Both the position numbers and the translations under genes were made by a program. A DNA stretch of 64,000 nt from Ginglymostoma cirratum (Eukaryota), in the NCBI GenBank assembly GCA_024137785.1, contig JAHRHZ010000004.1, forward strand, positions 33,398,344-33,462,343. The letters are read 5' to 3'. Shown here piece after piece: positions 1,538 through 60,771 of this stretch. Under the pieces are notes generated by a model that did no database searches, was not told the origin of the DNA, and saw only the letters and a program-made list of their open reading frames with translations. Position 1 is the stretch's first letter. Each line of letters opens with the position of its first letter.

Positions 1538-1665
1538 AAGTGCCAACACAACACCAAGGGCCTCCGGTGTGAGCGATGTGAGTCCGGTTTCTATGGCGAT
1601 GCCAGAGGTGGAACTCCAAATGACTGTAAGCCTTGTCCTTGTCCAGGAACCACTCCCTCAAATCG
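1538..1665 (+). CDS. HSPG2: Perlecan exon, domain III laminin-EGF ([42 protein letters not shown])
   Basis: cag| acceptor, |gtgag donor, phase 0/2; resembles human perlecan GCQHHTEGPRCEQCQPGYYGDAQRGTPQDCQLCPC (recalled). Confidence 0.95.
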
Positions 1666-3974: not shown

Positions 3975-4061
3975 ATTCTCCTCGACTTGTTTCCTGGATG
4001 TAGATGGACAGGCAACTTGTGATCGTTGCCCTAGCGGTTATGAAGGCAGGAACTGCGAAAG
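3975..4061 (+). CDS. HSPG2: Perlecan exon, laminin-EGF (RFSSTCFLDVDGQATCDRCPSGYEGRNCER)
   Basis: tcag| ... |gtatag, phase 2/2; perlecan-type TCFLDxDG motif. Confidence 0.95.
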
Positions 4062-6749
4062 GTATAGTTCACCAAGACACTCCTGTGCCTTAGTTTATCA
4101 TGGCCATTTTTACTGTATGTTATTACTTCCTGTGTGGGTACTCCAATTAATTAACCCAAAGGCCCACTTACTTAATCCAGACAGAGTTGCTTCAGTGTGG
4201 TGTCATTTCCAAGAAACAACATCGATTCAGATATCCTGATCCCTTCATCGGACCATTTGTACCAAGATATGTTTCTATTTAATTCGTGTTGTTTACTAAA
4301 TGCCGCAAGTAAAATACCTAAACCTGAACTAACGTATATAATCCAGTTACTGTCCAGAGAAATCTCAAGCTCCGGTGAAAGAGTTTGATTTAACTGAGTC
4401 GATAGCAGCCTCCTTGCATTTTCACCAGCAATTCTCTGACTACAAGGAGCTAGCTGAATATGGGATTTAATTTGAAAAGCAAAGAGCTACTTTCGGATTT
4501 TCAATAGAAACCTGCTTTCTTTGTTATGAATATCAGCATCAAAATCATAAAATGGCTTTTCGAAGAGTCGATCAGTGTCAATTCAACACACTGTAAGACC
4601 TGGTTTGTCCAACTCCGATAGAGAAGGGATGGCGGTCTCTTTTGCCTGAATGTGCAGCCCAGTGAGCATGAGATTGGTTCATTTCATGGTGGGTACAGGT
4701 ACTCAAGATGAGTTCACAGTGAAGCCCCTTAGTGCAGTGTGTCACTGCTGCCACTGATAGCTTCCTGCAAAGAAAGCAAAGTAACATTGAAAATCTTTCC
4801 AAGGCAGCATTCCATTCTTTGTCAGGATAATGACACCACACACCTCTGTTGAAAGCAGATAACTCACATGTAGCTTCTCCCAAACTCTATACGCTAGACT
4901 GAGCATGCAGGAGAATAACTTAAAGAAGTTATCAACTGTCGTGAAATGAGCTGAAAGCACAATGGTTTATTGTTTGCACAAAATTACAGTCATACAAAAT
5001 ATCCTTAATATAGCCGTTTAAAATTGCCTGTGTTCTTCAGTTGTCACTGCTCTTGGATTATTCTGAGTGTCGTTGACATGAAGCATATGATCACTGACTG
5101 GTAATGTAGCGCAGTATATCAAAACCAATTTTTTACAGAAATAAACCCCCACCAAGACAGGATCTTCTGCATGCTATATGTCTGGAGTCTAGGGAGAAGC
5201 CAAGGTTTAAATCGTAAACATTATTGGACTGATCACTCAATAACTACCTCACTGTTTGAGGCAGAAGCTGCAAGGTAGAATGGCTGGCTGTTGAGCTGAC
5301 TTTAACGGCCATTAGGATATTCCCTGTTGTTGTCCATTTTCACCATTGGACATATTTTGGGTTCATTGCCAAATCTGTTTGGTTTTTAGAAGGAAAACGG
5401 AATTCCTTTGGGCCACTATGGAAGCCAGAGTCTGATCATTAACAGATTCTTTGTCAGCCACTGAAGGCTGCCACTTTTTGACCAACAGACTTTCAGCTTC
5501 TGTAATAGGGGCTAATAGTAACAAGATATGTTGAGCCTTACTTACTGTGGAAAAGCCTTAGAGCTTTGCATGACTCAGTTGGAAGTTGGTGCTTTCTGTT
5601 ATGGGGTTCCTATGTAGTTGCAGGTTGATGATCTTAAGGTGCTTCTTGGTGGCTTGATCTCTCTATGTCTGTACTGACGGCTGACTGTAGCGATGGTGAC
5701 TGCTGTACATTTTTGTCTGTTATGGTCCTTTCACAATGTCAAACATTGATTCATGGGAAGTAAGATATGTATCTGCTACTTGGTTTGACACTATTTCAAG
5801 AGTATAGCTTTTATTCTTCAGGCTGGGTATGAATTAAATTTAATTGTAAGCAAGAAATTTGTCAACTAATGTGAGTTGTTGACTTGTACTGAAGTATCTG
5901 ATCATTGGTAGGATAATGCAATAAAACAAAGCTTTAATGGCCTTCCAAATGATGGTTCATCATCTACTGAGTTGAAAGCAACAGTTGAGTGTCTGATGAG
6001 ATTTGTCTTTATGGTTGAATATATCCCTCCCACGCTGTCTCTTGCAATGCCACAGTCTGCCCCAGTCCCGCAATCCAGTTAGTCTGCATCTGTCTCCATA
6101 ACAGTAGGTGCTAATTATGAGAGTTTGAAATGAGAGTTTGGAAGAATTCCACTTACCTGTTTAATCACTCATTTTTGGTAAGATGTTTTGCTGGGATGTC
6201 AAAGATTTTGATGTCTGATTATCCCCATGTTGCAGCTGACCAGATTGACTTGGGGCCACCCTCAGCTGTTGCCTTCCACTGTGGAACTTCCATGTTTACC
6301 ACAGCAATTCACATGACAATTAAGAGCAACTCAATTTACTGATGTGTTTTATAAACATATTTATATTCTGGGACTGTATGTTTGTTGGATCGGAAGTATT
6401 TTTCCTCAAGTTCATGCTCAGCCCAAAGTGGCGAGTGGAATTTCCCCAGCTCTGCCAAAAGGAATCCTTTATCAAGTAGTTTGGTACAGTGTCAGTTAGC
6501 TTGCACATAGGGAGGGACCTGTTTTTAAAAAAAAAAAGGGGGTGTGGAACTGGTAGTCTCACTGAGAACAACCAGAAGATAACTGAAGAAGGAAGTAGAG
6601 CATTTGCGTTGGCTGTAGAGATTCTGAAGTTGGAGTTGAGTTGCCAAATAGATATGCAACAATTTGGAGATGATCGTCATTCATCCTAATGTTATGGCAT
6701 ATTCACTTCCTCAAATTAGATTCCTCAACTTAATAAGAACTTCTAGATT

Positions 6750-8266: not shown

Positions 8267-8566
8267 TCATAGAATCCCTACAGTGTGGAAACAGGCCCTT
8301 CGGCCCAACAAGTCCACACCGACCCATCCCCCTGTTATCCACCTAATCTGGACATCCCTGAGCACTATGGGCAATTTAGCAAGGCCAATCCACATAGCCC
8401 ACACATCTTTGGACTGTGGGAAGAAACCGGAGTACCCCGGAGGAAACCCGCGCAGACACAGGCAGAATATGCAAGCTCCACACAGACAGTCGCCCGAGAG
8501 TGGATTTGAACCTGGGTCGCTGGTGCTGTGAGGTAGCAGTGCTAACCACTGAGCCACCATGCCCCC
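8267..8566 (-). mobile_element. HE1-like tRNA-derived SINE
   Basis: Same family as 1819-2126; A/B boxes and GGGATTCTATGA tail. Confidence 0.85.
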
Positions 8567-8814
8567 TTCTGTTGGCATCTTCCCATTTTTCCACAATAAT
8601 TGGCACACTTCATTGGGTAATGGAAGAAGTTTCATTTTTCTTCATACCAAGTTTCATTTTTCAAAAAAATGATTTCATCGTTTCATTTGCTGATCTGAGT
8701 GAAGTGTTCCCACAAATTGCTGTAAAAGTCATTTGTGAAATTCAGGAATTTCTTTTCTGATACGCACAAGTCCAGGGGTGAAAAATTTCAGTTACAAATA
8801 AGGATTGGAGAAGT

Positions 8815-9195: not shown

Positions 9196-10707
9196 TGGGG
9201 TCAAATAATAAAAAGATGAATTCCATTGATTGTAACTCATCATTTGAATACTCTAGCTCTCCCATTATTGCATCCAGCTGTGTAATGTATGTTTCTGATT
9301 TGGTTTTACTGCTGTGCCTGGGGTGTTTGCTCAGAGGTTTTTACACTGTGTGAAATGAAAATGTACTTTGCAGCTGTCCTGCACCGAGGAGATAATTTGA
9401 ACCACTGAACAGAACTCGACTTGTTTGCACTATTAACCCTTGGAGCAGACTCATTTTGTTCTTGATCCTTTGTTGTCGGTTTAATCCTTGCCACAGCTGG
9501 CATCTCCAATTTGTTGATTTAGGTGAAGCTAAATCATCTAGAAAATGGGCTGTGTCTTGAAGACCTCACTTATTATGCAGCAGGTAACGGGAAAATGTTC
9601 AGGCAGTTTCCATTAGACCATGTAAACTGATCATATCCATTGAATTGCTTAAGCTCACTGCATATTATTCACTTTGAAGTAATTTCCATTCAAATTGGAT
9701 GGCCAGCTCCACTGTCGGTGGCATAGTGGTAATATCATTGAACTGGTAATCCTGTGGCCCAGGCTAATGCTGGGGAACAAGTTCACATCCCCTCATGGCA
9801 GTGGGTGGAATTCAAATTCAGTTAAATAAACCTGGAATTGGAAACTAAACATAATTTTATCATTGCTTATCACAAAAACTAGGGGTCTCTACATGTTCCT
9901 TAATGGAGGAAAATCTGCCGTCCCTACCAGGTTTTCTTTGCACATGACTCAGCAATGGAGCTGTCATTTACTGCCATCCAAAATGGCCCAGCAAGTCACT
10001 CAGTTCAATGTTGAATGTTGGGAAACCTTGAGGCCCCCGTTCTGTCAATGTTAGGATGGTACTTCCTTTTCATTCCGGGTCATGAGTGCATAATTTGTGC
10101 TGCTTGACCTGGTTTGCCACCTTTTAAGTGTTGCACTTCCTGACAAAGAGCTCAGTTTGCTTTCCAGCTTACGACATCTACAGTAAAGTTCAGGGTGAGA
10201 ATTTGCTTCTGGACTGGGAGTTGTTTTCCTTTTTGAGGATTGTACTGAGATGAGGTGCAGGTGAATACAGACTTTGGTGCAAGGATAATAATTGACCTTC
10301 ATGTACAGACTAGACTTGGGACCTTTGCTTTAATCACTGCCTAATCTAGCTCTTCTGCTACGCTTCTGCTGCTGACTAACCTGTGCACTAATGTGGGGGT
10401 ACCATGTTGGCTATTTGTTGGTCAGGGCTTGCAAACCTTGCAGTGTGTTGCATAAAGCCTTTCCACACTGATACACAAGTACTGAACATACATGAGAAAA
10501 TCTACTAGGCTGAAATAAGCCTATTGTTGTGAGCAATAGAGCCTTCAGCACACAGTCTTTGTGCTTCAGTAAAATAGTCCAAAACAAAAAGTCTAAAGTG
10601 AAACCAATCTAAACTAACCAACTAGCTGTCAATCTGAGGCCAAATGATCGTATTCAATGTAAATATTTCTTTAAAGAAGGAAAAGGTGTTTTTGTTTGCT
10701 GACCAAG

Positions 10708-12637
10708 ACCTTTTAATCCTTTAAGAAGAAATCTAACAGAATTCTGCAAAGTTGGGATTCAGACGGTAAAGCTGGAGTCCCAGATGCTGATTCCAATTGA
10801 ATGTGAGAAGAATGGCTTCAGAAATTTCACTGGCAATGTTACAGAACCTGGTCCGAGCAGAAAACACATGGCCAGTAACACTACTGCTTTAGCAGAAACA
10901 TCAGGCAATGCTTCCAGCCCAGCTGCAGTTACTGTGCCAACAATTCTGCCAGCCAAGACCACCACAAAACGGAGGATATATAATCTCAGGCACCTGATGA
11001 AAACATCTCTGATTGGCTTCAACAGAAGGCTAACCATGTTAGAGGACACAGGTTTGGACCTTAAAGATGGCTTGAAACATTTACAGAAAAGGCAAGACAA
11101 CTTAAGCTTGCAGTTGAAGAACCTCACCCGTATGTTGTCAGCCCCTCCTAAAGACAAACTGATCTCCGACTTGCAATGGAAGTATACAGATGTCGATAAC
11201 AAGTTGACGGCTTTGCAAGTAAGGCTGGAAATTCTTATTGATGGTTTTGCAGCATTGGCTGAGGAGATCTCCGAGCTAAAGAAAAGGAGGATTTCGCTCA
11301 CCAACAGTGATCAAGCAGATCTCACTGTAGTCACCACTAGTTCTCCTGCAAAGCCATTGACAAAACACACCAGAACTAACTTAAAAGTGAAGCTAACATC
11401 TGACGGAAACCACAACAAAACCTCAAGTTTTGTTTCCAAAAGACCTTCGGTTAAAAAACCCAGTCTCCCCACACCAAGCAGAATGAAGAGCAAAATGTCT
11501 CGCTTTCACAGAAAAGCAGCTACCACCGTCGTCTCTGCGACAACTGTACAAAGACATGTCAGATCCACAGCTGCTCCTCTGCAATCTACAAGCAAAGTCC
11601 AGGTGAAGAAGAAAGTTAAAGTGTCTATTAAAAATAATGGGCATAAAAACTCAGCTGTGTTTGGTAAAGGCCAAGCTGTTGTTAAACAGATCCCCACAAC
11701 AGCGATATCTGCAGTAACAATTACGCCTGCAGTAACCCTTGAACTAGTCTCATCTACCACACTGTATTCCAACATAACTGTGGTCACCATAGAGCCCAAG
11801 ACATTGACAACCCAGCCCATTCCCACAGCTGTGGTAGAGAAACCCACAAAATCACACTTACCAGCATTGAGGACAAAAGTAAAACCTAGTTACATAGACA
11901 TGGTAAATAATGCAACGATCCCAGTTAGGATTAAGGGTAAAATAAACTCCGGTAATAAAACCGTTACAAAGTCTAAAAGTAAAACCAAACCTGGTAAAAA
12001 TGGAACTGGGCACTCTGAGCATAAATCGAAACCTGGTACAAAAACATCAACACAGTCTCAAGTTAAAGCAAAACATGGTAGAGAAGGAACAACAAAACTC
12101 CTTACTACAACCGTAAAACCCTCAGTGACAGCAACACGGAATAGAGTTAGATCTCAAAAGCATAAAATCAAAAGCCCGTCGTCAGCAGATAGTACTAATA
12201 CATCCATCCACTGGACAGAAAAGACATTGATTAAATCAGGGGCTGCTGCGTTGTCTGCAGTGACAGCACAGCCTAAACCTGTGGGCAAAGTGAGAGAACG
12301 GCCAAAATTGGTGTTTGCCAGGAAGATTCCTGAAAAGGCAGAGACCCTGTTGACACTTAGCACGCCACTCCCAGCAACTGCGTCCGCCCAGAAAAGATCT
12401 GAAAGTCGAGCAATGAGTGGACCACAGACTCAAAACTGTGATGACAATAACCGTCCCAGAAAGAAACTAGCAGAGGGTAGAAGGAGAAAGACAAAGAAGG
12501 CAACTGCTCTAGACATCCTGCGAGTACTGCGAGGAGAGCAACGACACTCTTCCAACTCACATCGCAAAAACAAGGACCTGCCACTCTATATTACTCTGGG
12601 TCGCCTAGCCATACCAATAAAAATTATCCCAGATTGA
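10708..12637 (+). CDS. Candidate alternative last exon of HSPG2 (about 642 aa: coiled coil, basic mucin-like stalk, hydrophobic C-terminus); alternatively a nested gene exon
   Basis: 1.9-kb stop-free frame (open from 10703; 617-aa ORF from ATG 10784); pyrimidine tract tgtttttgtttgctgacc-aag| gives a phase-2 acceptor matching the 4061 donor; not transposon-like. Confidence 0.75.
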
Positions 12638-13480
12638 TGATCTTCTCTGCTGGCTTTTAGAGTTCACTCAACATAAAAGGCATGAAGACATTTCCATCTA
12701 ATAGCTGGTTTTGTGCATGAGAATCCTATTTGTTTAAATGTAAGATGGAAATTCACTTAGAGGTTTTCAAGATTCTTTTGCACTTACTGTATAAAACAGT
12801 GTACAAATGTTTATCAGAAGTTTTGAAGGTATTATGCAATGTAGTTTGCAAAAGTAAATGTAACTCATTTCAAACATCAATGAGGTGCAAGTAACTACCT
12901 CGATACAAGTGATACACTTGGTTTCCTTTCGTTTGTTCTGCAATATCTGTACAGAAACCTATCTGCTGTAGTAATTTATTGAATTCCACAAACTAGTCTC
13001 TTTTTGGTTCAAATATTGATTGACAGTGCCCAAAGAAAATGGGCATCAGATTTTACCTCCACATGTACTTAGATTGTTTTCAGTAGATTGCTTGTGATTT
13101 ACCTGCTGAAGGATTATAGGTCATTTCATTTTTGAGTGTTTGTCTTGTTGCATTGCATACTCTATGTCCCTTAGACCAACTAAATCCAGTAGTCAATTAG
13201 CTGCATTTATGTGATCAGACAATGTGTGCAAGTAAGAACCTCCAAGGTGAAAATCCTAAGGTGTAAAAAGATCTGAAGTTCAAATCTGTTAACTGTTCTG
13301 ATTCTGGATGAGTCTGGACTCAACAACTGGCTCAATTTATTTCACTTAATAACAGTCGCTTCCATACATCATCAGTGCCATTTTGACAAATGTTTGCATT
13401 GCCAACAAGGAAATGAAACCTAATAATACTACATATTGCTGTGTGTAATGTTTGAAATAAAATCTTGAATGCAGCACTGA
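12638..13480 (+). other. Putative 3'UTR of the 10708-12637 exon, with polyadenylation signal AATAAA at 13456-13461
   Basis: AT-rich, no recognisable repeats, follows a TGATGA stop; first AATAAA I found after the stop. Confidence 0.55.
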
Positions 13481-15250: not shown

Positions 15251-16089
15251 CTGTCAGTTCCTGCTTTCTTTCCCTTTCTTTTGTGAATAGAAAGAATTCG
15301 TTATTTTCCCATCTGATTTCCAGGCTTCCTAGAATCTAAAGAATTAAAACCACATTAATTTCACGTAAACCAAAAACAAAGAACTGCAGATGCTGGAAAT
15401 CTGAAATGAAAGTGTAGTCCTGAATTAGGATCAGTGGACTGGAAACGTTGACTCTGCTTTCTCTTCACAGATACTGAAAGACCTGCTGAGTTTCTCTGGC
15501 ATTTTCTGTTTTTTTAATTAAATTCACATACTCACTCAGCAGCCATGTATTTTAAGATGCTAGGATGAAGCCAAACTGCATCTCTTTGAATCAACTCTGC
15601 TAAAATTAGCAAAGGAAAGAAAATATGCCCCACTCTTGCTGCTTACTAAAACTCTGTGGAGTTTTATTTGCTTTTAGCAAGTTTTGATCTCCTATGTCTT
15701 CAATCCAGCTCATTTTCTTTCTAACTTTCAATTGATTGAAGTCGAATATTGTGTAGTTCTTATTACTCCCAAATGGTGGCGATCTTGCATTTAAGGTCCT
15801 CATGTAATCATTGCTTCCATAGCTTATGGACCACAACCTACTTCTAGAAGTGGTAATAAAAACAGAAGGTACTAGAGAAACTCAGTAGGTCTGGCAGCAT
15901 CGGTGGAGAGAAGAACAGAATGAAGGTTTCAAGTACACTCTGACTTCAGAATAAATTCACATCTTCCCACATTATACTTGTGATGAATCCTTTCTTTTGT
16001 ATGAATTCTTTGAGCTGCAGAAGCCAGCACTCTGAGATAAAAAATACTTGGGCACACTTATTTCTTTTGGCAACATCTTGAAACTAGGA

Positions 16090-16460
16090 GCAGTCAAGCC
16101 TGCTCCACCATTTAACAAAATAATGGTTGACCTTTTCATGGACTGAGCTCCCCTTACCCACCTGCTCACCATAACCCTTACTTACTTTGCTGTTCAAAAA
16201 TCTATCTATTTGTCTTAAAAACATTGTGAGGTAGCCTCAACTGCTTCACTGGGCAGGGAATGCCACAGATTCACAACCCTTTGGAAGAAGAACTTCCTCA
16301 TCAACTCGGTCCTAAATCTGCTCCCCTTATTTTGAGGCTATGTCCCCCAGTTCTAGTTTCACCCACCAGTTAAAACAACTTCCCTGCTTCTTTCTTATAT
16401 ATTCTTATACTCCTGTCATAATTTTGCGTGTTTCTATAAGATTCCCCCCTCATTCTTTTA
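16090..16460 (-). mobile_element. CR1-type LINE 3' fragment
   Basis: Antisense similarity to 17030-17300 and 45850-46150. Confidence 0.65.
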
Positions 16461-17029
16461 AAAATAATATCATTTTATGTCATATTTAACTGTTCCAAGA
16501 CATTAGTTGTATGCAATTGTACCTAGAAATAGGAGCAGGGTTAGTTGCAAGCCTCTCAGTAAGTCATTCAGAATAGTAAAAGAGTCATTCTTCACGACTT
16601 CCTTCCCTAGCATGTCATGTTATCAGCAACTTGAGCACCAAGACAGGTATATTGGTCTCAGAAGGTTTAACTCTGTTTCTCTCTACACAGACACTGCCAG
16701 ACCTACTGAGTTTCTCCAGCACTTTGTTTTTATTTTAGATTTCCACCATCTACAGTACTTCATTTTTGTTCTAGAAGTGGTAGTTTTACTCAAGACTGTC
16801 AATTCAGAATGGCTCAACAGAGGACCAGGCAAGAACAATCACACTCAATTTTCCAGCCAAAGAAATCTCAAGGTTGCAACTGCTCTGAGAAGCTTACTCT
16901 TGCCTCCTGATTAGAACAGGGACCAAGGATTACTATTAAAAATGATCCAGCAGAATTTGACAAAACTATATTGCAGAGCTCCAAATCCGTTAACGTTACG
17001 GAACTTGTTCTGGTGACATTTGTTCAGTC

Positions 17030-22395: not shown

Positions 22396-22597
22396 TTTGC
22401 CAGTGATAGCAAGAACTACAGATGCTGGAGTCTGAGATAACACAGTGTGGCGCGGGAAGAACACAGCAGGCCAGGCAGCATCAGAAGAGCAGGAAAGTTG
22501 GCATTTCAGGTCGGGACCCTTTTCTGAAGAAGAGTCCTGACCCGAATTGTCAACTTTCCTGCTCCTTTGATGCTGCCTGGCCTGCTGTGTTCTTTCA
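22396..22597. mobile_element. Palindromic non-autonomous Penelope-end element
   Basis: Two inverted copies of the Penelope terminal sequence; imperfect flanking direct repeat aaatgcttt(gc/at)cag. Confidence 0.7.
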
Positions 22598-27093: not shown

Positions 27094-27143
27094 ATGTGCT
27101 TCAGGTTACACTGGAAATCCAACATATGGACAAAGTTGTACTA
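27094..27143 (+). CDS. HSPG2: Perlecan exon (RCASGYTGNPTYGQSCT)
   Basis: ttacag| ... |gtgagt, phase 2/1; cf. human RCAPGYYGNPSQGQPC. Confidence 0.93.
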
Positions 27144-54337: not shown

Positions 54338-56124
54338 GATAAAACGTTGTGGAGCTGGATGAACACAGCAGGCCGAGCAGCATCACAGGAGCAGGAAAGT
54401 TGACGTTTCGGGTCGAGACCCTTCTTCAGAAATGGGGGAGGGGAAGGGGATTCTGAAATAAATAGGGAGAGAGGGGGAGGTGGATAGAAGATGGATAAAG
54501 GAGAAGATAGGTTGAGAGGAGACAGACAGGTCAAAGAGGCGGGGTTAGAACCAGTGAAGCTGAATGTAGGTGGGGGATAGGTCAGTCCAGGGAGGACGGA
54601 CAGGTCAAGGAGGCGGGTTGAGGTTAGTATGTAGGAGATGGGGGTGGGGCTTGAGGTGGGAGGAATGGTTAGGGAGGTGGGGACCAGCTGGGCTGGTTTT
54701 GGGATGTCCTTGGGGGAGGGGAGATTTTGAAGCTTGTGAAGTCCACATTGATACCCTTGGGTTGCAGGGTTCCCGAGCAAAATATGAGTTGCTGTTCCTG
54801 CAGCTTTCGGGTGGCATCATTGTGGCAATGCAGGAGGCCCAGGATGGACATGTCGTCCGAGGAGTGGGGGGAGGGGGGAGGTATGCGAGTCGAAATGGTT
54901 CGCGACTGGGAGGTGTAGTTGTTTGTTGCGAACTGAGCGTAGTTGTTCCACAAAGCAGTCCCCAAGCCTCCGCTTGGTTTGCCTGATGTAGAGGAGGCCA
55001 CGACGGGTACAGCGGATGCAGTATACCACATTAGCAGATGTGCAGGTGGACATCTGTTTGATGTGGAAGGTCTTCTTGGGGCCTGGGATGGGGGTAAGAG
55101 GGGAGGTGTAGGGGCAGGTGTAGCATTTGCTTTGGTTGCAGGGAAAAGTGCAGGGGTGGTAGGGCTGGAGCGGAGTGTGGAGCGGACAAGGGAGTCAGAG
55201 AGAGTGGTCCCTCCGGAAAGCAGACAAGGGTGGGGAGGGAAAAATGTCTTTAGTAGTGGGGTCAGATTGCAGATGGCGGAAATGTCGGAGGATGATGTGT
55301 TGGATTCGGAGATTGGTGGGGTGGTACATGAGGACGAGAGGGCTTCTGTTTTGGTTATTATAGTGGGTAGGGGGTGTGGGGGATGAGCTGTGGGAAATGC
55401 GGGAGACATAGTCAAGGGCATTTTCGATCACTGTGGAGGGGAAGTTGTGATCCTTGAAAAACAAGGACACCTGGGATGTTCGGGAGTGGAATGCCTCATC
55501 TTGGGCGCAGATGCGGCGGAGGCGAAGGAATTGGGAATAGGGGATGGCCTTTTTACAGGAAGGTGGGTGGGAGGAGATGTATTCTAGGTAGTTGTGGGAT
55601 TCAGTAGGCTTAAAATGGATATCGGGTTCCAGGTGGAGGCCAGAGATGGAGACAGAGGGGTCCAGGAAGGAGAGAGAGGTATTAGAGATGGTCCAGGTGA
55701 ACTTAGAGTTGGGGTGGAAGGTGTTGGTGAGGTGGATGAACTGTTCGAGCTCCTCGTGGGAGCACGAGGCAGTGCCGAAACAGTCATCAATGTAACGGAG
55801 GAAGAGATGGGGGATAGGACCAGCGTAGTTCTGGAAGAGGGATTGTTCCACGTATCCTACAAAGAGGCAGGCATAGCTTGGGCCCATGCGGGTATCCATG
55901 GCCACCACCTTTGTCTGTAGGAAGTGGGAGGAATTGAAAGAGAAGTTGTTGAGTTCAGCTAAGCGGATGAGGGTGTCAGTGGAGGGGGACTGGTCGGGCC
56001 TGCGGGACAGGAAGAAGCGGAGGGCCTTTAGGTCATCAGCATGGGCGGGACAGGAAGAAGCAGAGGGCCTTTAGGTCATCAGCATGGGAATGGGACAGGA
56101 AGAAGCGGAGGGCCTTCAGCCATC
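54338..56124 (-). mobile_element. 5'-truncated Penelope-like retroelement (RT C-terminus, GIY-YIG endonuclease, terminal region), frameshifted
   Basis: ORF 55195-55908 has MGPSYACLF...RYIDD; ORF 54817-55053 has NVVYCIRC...LLYIRQTKRRLGDCFVEQ (GIY-YIG); 15-bp TSD TAATGAATGAAGAGG (54323-54337 and 56125-56139). Confidence 0.92.
54401..54430 (-). ncRNA. Minimal hammerhead ribozyme motif in the Penelope terminal repeat
   Basis: Minus strand reads CUGAAGA-A-GGG-UCUCGA-CCC-GAAAC-GUC-A. Confidence 0.65.
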
Positions 56125-60119: not shown

Positions 60120-60771
60120 GTAAGTTGCCAACTTCGTAAAACTATTGATGCATTGTGTTGCTGTCAGAAATTTAGAGCTCCAAATTTATGTGCTATATAT
60201 AACAATGTTCATGGGGCTTTTTGTGAAATTTTGAGTGTTAAGTTGGAGCTGTTTTAATTGTATCTCAGTGATTGCCACAGGGTCCTGAATTTCTGACCTC
60301 AGCTCTGTCATTGTGATGAGATTTGTAGGGCTTGGAAGAGAGCTGCAGTATTAAATAACGGTTCCTGTTTTCCTGCAAATGTTCTGCACCTGTTGACTGT
60401 TGGCAGATTTCTGTCAATATGGATACAGCAGCTGTAGAAACGTTTGAGGGTCACTAGTGGACAATGTTGGAGGAACGGGGGTGGGGCTGCATGATGGTTG
60501 CTGGGGTAGGTGCCTGGGTAGGGCACTGTGGTGGGCAATGGCAATGGGTCAACGCTGAAGGATGGTGCCCAAGGGTCACTGGGCTGGCAAGCAATGTGCA
60601 GTCACCCTCTTAGCTGCTGGTTATTAATGCTTACAATAACACTGTTAAGCACATACAGCTGTACCCATATGGATTGTTAGTTATAAGTTGTTTTTACATC
60701 TGATTGTGTGTGTCATGGACATTGTAACTCGAAACCTTTCATGTTGTGCTCCACTTTCTGTCTTCTACAAG

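Follow-up and report, generated by a model that had tools for sequence, protein, structure and literature searches.

The HSPG2 locus and an open frame within a domain III intron

The window analyzed here, a stretch of 64,000 nucleotides of eukaryotic (Ginglymostoma cirratum) DNA with a GC content of about 40%, carries perlecan (HSPG2) exons on the + strand. These exons start in the laminin-EGF repeats of domain III and reach the first Ig repeat of domain IV. Perlecan is a core basement-membrane protein that is generally viewed as a single five-domain chain. The constitutive HSPG2 exons include a laminin-EGF repeat of domain III (1538..1665, +), located by tblastn with the perlecan model of Chiloscyllium punctatum, an exon ending in a phase-2 donor (3975..4061, +), and the next constitutive exon, which has a phase-2 acceptor and serves full-length perlecan (27094..27143, +). 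The 23-kb domain III intron between the latter two (4062-27093) harbors a hidden stop-free frame of 1.9 kb and 644 codons (10703-12637), so that the downstream partner of the 3975 exon could be either the exon containing this frame or the exon at 27094. The frame is the longest among 6,726 six-frame segments of the window, and a geometric model gives about 5e-12 expected frames of this length. An Rfam search gave no matches across 4000-27200, and no tRNA genes were found. A 183-codon antisense frame (10759-11310, -) overlaps the region and is probably a shadow of the coding strand.

Splice-site features precede the frame at 10699..10728 (+), comprising a CTGAC about 23 bases upstream of the acceptors (a candidate branch point by consensus), a pyrimidine tract and tandem AG acceptors that place the exon start at 10726 or 10729. 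Both acceptors are phase 2 and in frame from the donor at 4062, the equivalent of 10729 being the one used in the C. punctatum model, and their pyrimidine content of 0.71 compares with 0.47-0.88 for the other acceptors of the window. The intron contains 1,512 AGs, of which 51 are followed by at least 100 open codons in phase 2; 41 of these 51 lie in the hidden frame, and none of the remaining 10 opens more than 128 codons. The AG at 10740 was rejected as an acceptor, as a stop is reached after 19 codons. Met 10784, from which the earlier note numbered the encoded residues, was rejected as the start, as it sits between two conserved cysteines and aligns with a glutamate in the C. punctatum record. 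As read from the sequence, the coding frame begins at acceptor 10726/10729 and not at Met 10784.

Among the 88 GT sites inside the frame, the best phase-2 donor-like score was 3.5 versus 4.4-10.3 for the 13 donors of the window, on a matrix built on only these 13 donors. Because this score lies below those of all 13 donors, re-entry into perlecan is unlikely, and with a good phase-2 donor absent the frame behaves as a last exon; an internal cassette exon was ruled out on the same matrix for want of a good phase-2 exit donor. The first AATAAA past the stop (13456..13461, +) is a candidate polyadenylation signal, weak in that the hexamer is frequent in the intron. Having an in-phase acceptor within an HSPG2 intron, its own stop and no in-phase exit donor, the region at 10729..12637 (+), with about 635 codons plus the stop and relatives in 19 other proteins, is probably the coding part of an alternative last exon of perlecan, apparently an undescribed variant of a known protein.

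Relatives of the exon and their pattern of conservation

A search with the coiled coil encoded early in the frame identified one named protein among 273 candidates, the C. punctatum gene model chiPu_0009953 (P0002), a record from a shark closely related to that of the window, which is 1,837 residues long, is annotated as "hypothetical protein" and shows 94% identity across the query. No further named short perlecan emerged when searching by length (one match in 273 candidates). A phmmer search of 1.84 billion representatives identified 18 proteins at E ≤0.001 (P0003-P0020) that were 37-75% identical, which with P0002, the only named one, makes 19 relatives. On the basis of divergence, the 18 relatives other than P0002 would belong to rays, sharks and bony fishes.

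Perlecan sequence is present in three of the 19 relatives (P0002, P0004 and P0006), and all three join the hidden exon directly after the orthologue of the 3975 exon. The 30 residues before the junction scored 146, 122 and 94 in P0002, P0004 and P0006, respectively, against the 3975 exon, versus 56, 48 and 78 against its paralogue at 60764, and P0002 and P0004 share only 66% identity over the perlecan part. Some perlecan stretches are missing from P0004 and P0006, a common trait of gene models. The three joined records are probably gene models, and they therefore show a conserved position and phase rather than expression.

Between the window and C. punctatum, identity is 96% in the coil, 79% in the stalk that follows it and 100% in the last 20 residues, and the two neighboring constitutive exons are 88% and 89% identical. 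The coil is 38-54% identical in the 17 distant relatives, and for 16 of these 17 identity amounts to 12-28% in the stalk and 65-75% in the terminal motif. This constraint on a conserved exon, seen with 19 relatives, supports the real coding function that the earlier note had proposed. A tree of 16 coil sequences had support for only 3 of its 13 inner branches, and no dates were drawn from it.

The exon opens with a conserved pair of cysteines (10745..10804, +; codons 10745 and 10802 in the alignment) in every relative that has this part in full. The pair lies where the last two cysteines of the interrupted laminin-EGF module, which has an eight-cysteine pattern, would be expected. After the coil, a basic, Ser/Thr/Pro-rich low-complexity stalk (11291..12505, +) has a Ser plus Thr fraction of 0.26 and a Lys plus Arg fraction of 0.20, and its composition is kept while its sequence is not: across relatives, the Ser plus Thr fraction is 0.22-0.30 and the net charge +0.14 to +0.22 per residue. 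In many relatives the stalk, although unalignable elsewhere, has the recurring short motifs FQLEPPSH and RSDAP, neither of which occurs in the window. The stalk is followed by a short conserved amphipathic helix, LDILRVL (12506..12529, +), and by a conserved C-terminal motif predicted to form a beta-hairpin, LYITLGRLAIPIKIIPD (12584..12634, +), which ends 19 of 20 sequences including the window and is missing only in P0006, which stops early. The C-terminal 56 residues modeled alone gave the same hairpin with pLDDT of 80-87.

Two further proposals of the earlier note were not supported. The KRR and KKRR flanks of the coil had been suggested as protease sites, but in the window no R-x-x-R flanks the coil on either side, and distant relatives lack the N-terminal KRR. 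An R-x-x-R occurs just after the coil in 4 of 19 relatives and before it in one, and a basic patch after the coil is general; conserved furin sites flanking the coil were rejected, as R-x-x-R is not kept there. The N-terminal half of the protein had also been called heparan-sulfate-bearing, yet domain I of the C. punctatum model, which may lack exons, contains no acidic Ser-Gly. For zebrafish perlecan, the text available from PMC2315682 reports that the SGD triplets of domain I are absent and that the attachment site is unknown, and the SG sites tabulated in its supplementary tables S1-S2 may bear on this site. The heparan sulfate premise for domain I is doubtful in fish. At the start of the hidden exon, an acidic Ser-Gly is found in 11 of the 14 distant relatives covering it and is absent in the window and P0002. 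Residues 30-33 of P0002 are RRRR, just before an acidic domain I stretch without Ser-Gly, and possibly form a propeptide cut site.

The coiled coil and its predicted self-association

The coiled coil is real and conserved. The heptad residues listed in the earlier note, numbered from Met 10784, match the translation at all 25 positions with a strict 3-4 spacing and a nine-residue step across SAPPK, and its placement at 10976-11290 is exactly the span of residues 65-169. Segment 1 (10976..11137, +) has its core at L76-L118 with a lead-in from I65, and segment 2 (11162..11278, +) covers I127-L165. The linker between them, SAPPKDKL (11138..11161, +), breaks the register; its length is conserved, whereas the proline break is not general, with 12 of 20 rows having no linker proline. 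The difference in hydropathy between a/d and the remaining positions is 4.83 in segment 1 and 4.73 in segment 2, values reached by none and two of 20,000 shuffles, respectively. Of 15,299 stop-free stretches of 42 residues taken elsewhere in the window or in its other frames, none attained either value (best 4.2), in agreement with the note's view that such periodicity is unlikely in random intron sequence. Conservation of the a/d positions, a check that the note itself had named, was likewise found: with the window and P0002 left out, relatives are hydrophobic at 379 of 430 a/d cells versus 124 of 980 at other positions, and registers slid along the alignment have hydrophobic fractions of 0.10-0.54 versus 0.88 in the true register. 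When the two segments were compared pairwise for an internal repeat, just a 16-residue local match emerged, so a segment duplication is not claimed.

AlphaFold2, run with a 20-row alignment, predicted two long helices at residues 61-119 and 123-174 (Met 10784 numbering) broken at APP, followed in order by an unstructured stalk, the short helix and the terminal hairpin. In the whole-exon model, pLDDT was 63-90 per 10-residue block in the helices and below 50 over most of the tail. With an overall pLDDT of 48.9 and pTM of 0.25, only the local elements of this model are usable.

Each segment carries a trimer motif of the form R(g)-h(a)-x-x-h(d)-E(e), as defined in the available text of PMC3653964. 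The motif of segment 1, RLTMLE (11027..11044, +), is present in 15 of the 16 rows spanning its position, that is, in the window and 14 of the 15 others. The second motif, in segment 2 (11201..11218, +), is degenerate in the window (KLTALQ) and canonical in 17 of 20 rows, the exceptions being the window and its two closest relatives, P0002 and P0003.

A three-copy ESMFold2 model of the coil scored 0.64, and the best of three controls 0.00. The runs agreed in at least 96% of contacts with pLDDT of at least 81, and all 25 a/d residues of one copy lie in the interface. These residues make like-to-like contacts in both segments, which makes the modeled assembly parallel and in register. In calibration, 21 of 30 solved homo-pairs but none of 23 single chains reached the mark applied to such models, as did 17 of 29 homo-pairs and none of 30 single chains among eukaryotic proteins; this calibration is for two copies only, and eukaryotic pairs without an older solved relative passed in one of seven cases. 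The complex model was made without an alignment, a pass may reflect memory of coiled coils, and three copies is the sole copy number modeled. The model thus supports self-association without choosing three copies over two. We infer a trimer rather than a dimer, the coil most likely joining three chains. The earlier suggestion that the coil could oligomerize the N-terminal half of perlecan gains support from the a/d conservation and from this prediction.

A probable short perlecan and rival explanations

We consider it fairly probable that the coil is part of an ancient HSPG2 alternative last exon encoding a short oligomerizing perlecan without domains IV-V, probably a trimer. The heptads, the constraint, the in-phase acceptor and the shared junction come from the sequence, and the parallel, in-register self-association from modeling. 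We infer that splicing in vivo would join donor 4062 to 10726/10729 rather than to 27094, giving an mRNA that ends in the hidden exon. Use of the proximal acceptor with an intronic poly(A) site would yield a perlecan of roughly 1,900 residues, presumably secreted, that retains domains I and II and about two-thirds of domain III and loses the third L4 unit, the Ig array of domain IV and domain V/endorepellin. The product would gain the cysteine pair, the two-segment parallel coiled coil, a basic stalk of O-glycosylation type and the small conserved hairpin. The coil would bundle copies of short perlecan, most likely three, so that domains I-III are displayed in a multivalent array that carries a polycationic tail. 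The two new cysteines may close the cut laminin-EGF module or link chains. The basic stalk may interact with polyanions such as glycosaminoglycans, and the invariant hairpin may serve in binding or nucleation. Against this explanation, a gene finder is prone to choose any long in-phase frame. In addition, the available text of PMC2315682 reports that zebrafish morpholinos directed at domain V, domain III or domain I all gave one phenotype, which provides no sign in zebrafish of an early role specific to a short form.

In the same exon, the coil might instead assemble as a dimer or tetramer, fold back on itself as an intramolecular hairpin of its two segments or partner another matrix protein. 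Leucine dominates both a and d and is a poor specifier of oligomer state (PMC3653964, available text), the register is broken by the nine-residue step between two segments of similar length, and the coil was modeled as three copies only. Nevertheless, most relatives retain Arg at g and Glu at e at two sites 58 residues apart, and the chains of the three-copy model run parallel and in register through both segments; we regard these other arrangements as unlikely. A different reading is that an independent gene, with an upstream first exon or promoter of its own, is nested in the HSPG2 intron and has the frame as its main exon, the perlecan joins being artefacts of gene models. It would account for the 16 of 19 relatives that are stand-alone ORFs without perlecan sequence, and the 6.6-kb upstream intron could hide a small first exon. 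However, the stand-alone ORFs begin at scattered internal methionines, and P0008, P0013 and P0014 extend upstream through a variable stretch to an arginine at the place where the joined records have their junction arginine, as expected of a phase-2 AG. The cysteine pair at the exon start would also complete the cut laminin-EGF module on its eight-cysteine pattern, and a nested gene appears improbable.

The coil could also derive from the exapted or decayed ORF of a mobile element, for example LINE-1 ORF1, a reading we consider very improbable. In LINE-1 ORF1p, a trimeric coil that also has the trimer motif is followed by an RRM and a CTD. An ORF1 origin was rejected: the window protein and the eight relatives with a complete Pfam listing match no ORF1 family, and the coil is followed by a stalk modeled as unstructured at low confidence. 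The available text of PMC5940361 describes homotrimerization of ORF1p via its coiled coil, and repeats are present in the intron. Against a mobile element, Pfam at E up to 10 gives the window protein no family, the listings of those eight relatives contain no transposase either, tblastn finds a single copy in the window and the constraint is greater than in the neighboring perlecan exons. That the frame arose by chance in intron DNA is hardly credible, being refuted by 644 open codons, periodicity beyond that of shuffles and 19 relatives with position-specific constraint.

Returning to the short perlecan ending in the hidden exon, we compared its predicted architecture with known systems. It shares the SEA, LDL-receptor A, first Ig, two L4 and laminin-EGF domains of full-length perlecan/HSPG2 (Pfam matches in P0002, P0004 and P0006), and differs in stopping within domain III, with the coil, stalk and hairpin in place of the third L4 unit and domains IV-V. 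In laminin chains, a cysteine pair and then a three-chain coiled coil come after the L4 and laminin-EGF repeats, an order that the predicted isoform resembles, whereas it has no LN domain and its coil spans about 100 residues rather than about 600. No Laminin_I or Laminin_II match in Pfam exceeded the cut-off, and among eight relatives only P0008 gave a sub-threshold Laminin_II match (E 0.1). Short parallel trimeric coils of the coronin-1 type share the R-h-x-x-h-E motif, here present twice in the correct g-a-d-e register, a likeness in motif and not in family. The short UNC-52 forms end after domain III. Section 4 of PMC6266596 describes short perlecan-gene products formed by alternative processing, namely human "miniperl", mast-cell fragments and short C. 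elegans UNC-52 isoforms, and for none of them does this section describe a new 600-residue exon or an oligomerization domain; miniperl, unlike the hidden-exon form, arises in domain I.

Searches of Pfam, the PDB and the ESM Atlas yielded no family, relative or cluster that covers the exon. A sequence profile searched against the PDB returned seven matches, all at E ≥0.13 (best: Coil-Ser peptides and the SK2 channel coil), and the C-terminal 56 residues returned none. Foldseek with the low-confidence whole-exon model found nothing at E 0.001, and VIA-align of the C-terminal model found none of 48,161 chains at Z ≥2, which is no proof of a new fold. In Pfam, the window protein matched no family at E up to 10, and in the relatives the exon gave only sub-threshold coiled-coil matches among the 25 of 49 families listed, eight relatives being complete. 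The ESM Atlas held no usable match for the coil of P0002 or P0004. The term "coiled coil" is absent from the main text of the perlecan papers PMC6266596 and PMC4398486. In literature on perlecan splicing, coiled coils and fish or shark HSPG2, in which subscription journals were thinly covered, no title or opening of an abstract describes the exon. In their available text, PMC6266596, PMC9010944 and PMC4859157 mention other perlecan splice forms and not the hidden exon, PMC4398486 has no occurrence of the search terms, and PMC5887144 and bioRxiv 2023.02.05.527217 contain nothing on short isoforms. A coiled-coil last exon of perlecan is apparently undescribed in the literature and databases covered and may be annotated somewhere, genome-browser annotation being outside this scope.

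More tentatively, jawed fishes may possess a second, overlooked perlecan, a laminin-like homotrimer of domains I-III that is joined by a new coiled coil and ends in a polycationic stalk and a hairpin module that is likewise new. Outside sharks, the exon would in addition provide the acidic Ser-Gly glycosaminoglycan site missing from fish domain I. The choice of last exon would then decide whether perlecan is a long monomeric scaffold with endorepellin or a clustered form that binds growth factors and lacks endorepellin. If a deeply conserved isoform without domains IV-V and with its own oligomerization domain is made, fish perlecan mutants and morphants would have to be reread, as lesions before the junction would affect both forms and those after it the long form only, and the exon would be a candidate for the heparan sulfate site of zebrafish perlecan that is left unplaced in the available text of PMC2315682. 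The conserved exon also raises the question of when it was lost or retained in tetrapods.

Finally, repetitive and repeat-like sequences were observed elsewhere in the window. Broken reverse-transcriptase-like frames at 54669-56070 (-), with no Pfam match at E 0.01, presumably resemble a Penelope-type retroelement. An inverted-repeat hairpin at 22457-22594 has 65-nt arms that are 89% complementary and an 8-nt loop, and two inverted pairs with 55-71-nt arms at 15459-15912 and 15854-16737 are probably oppositely oriented short interspersed repeats. By eye, the stretches at about 1830-2130 and 8270-8570, in two introns, are alike and SINE-like.
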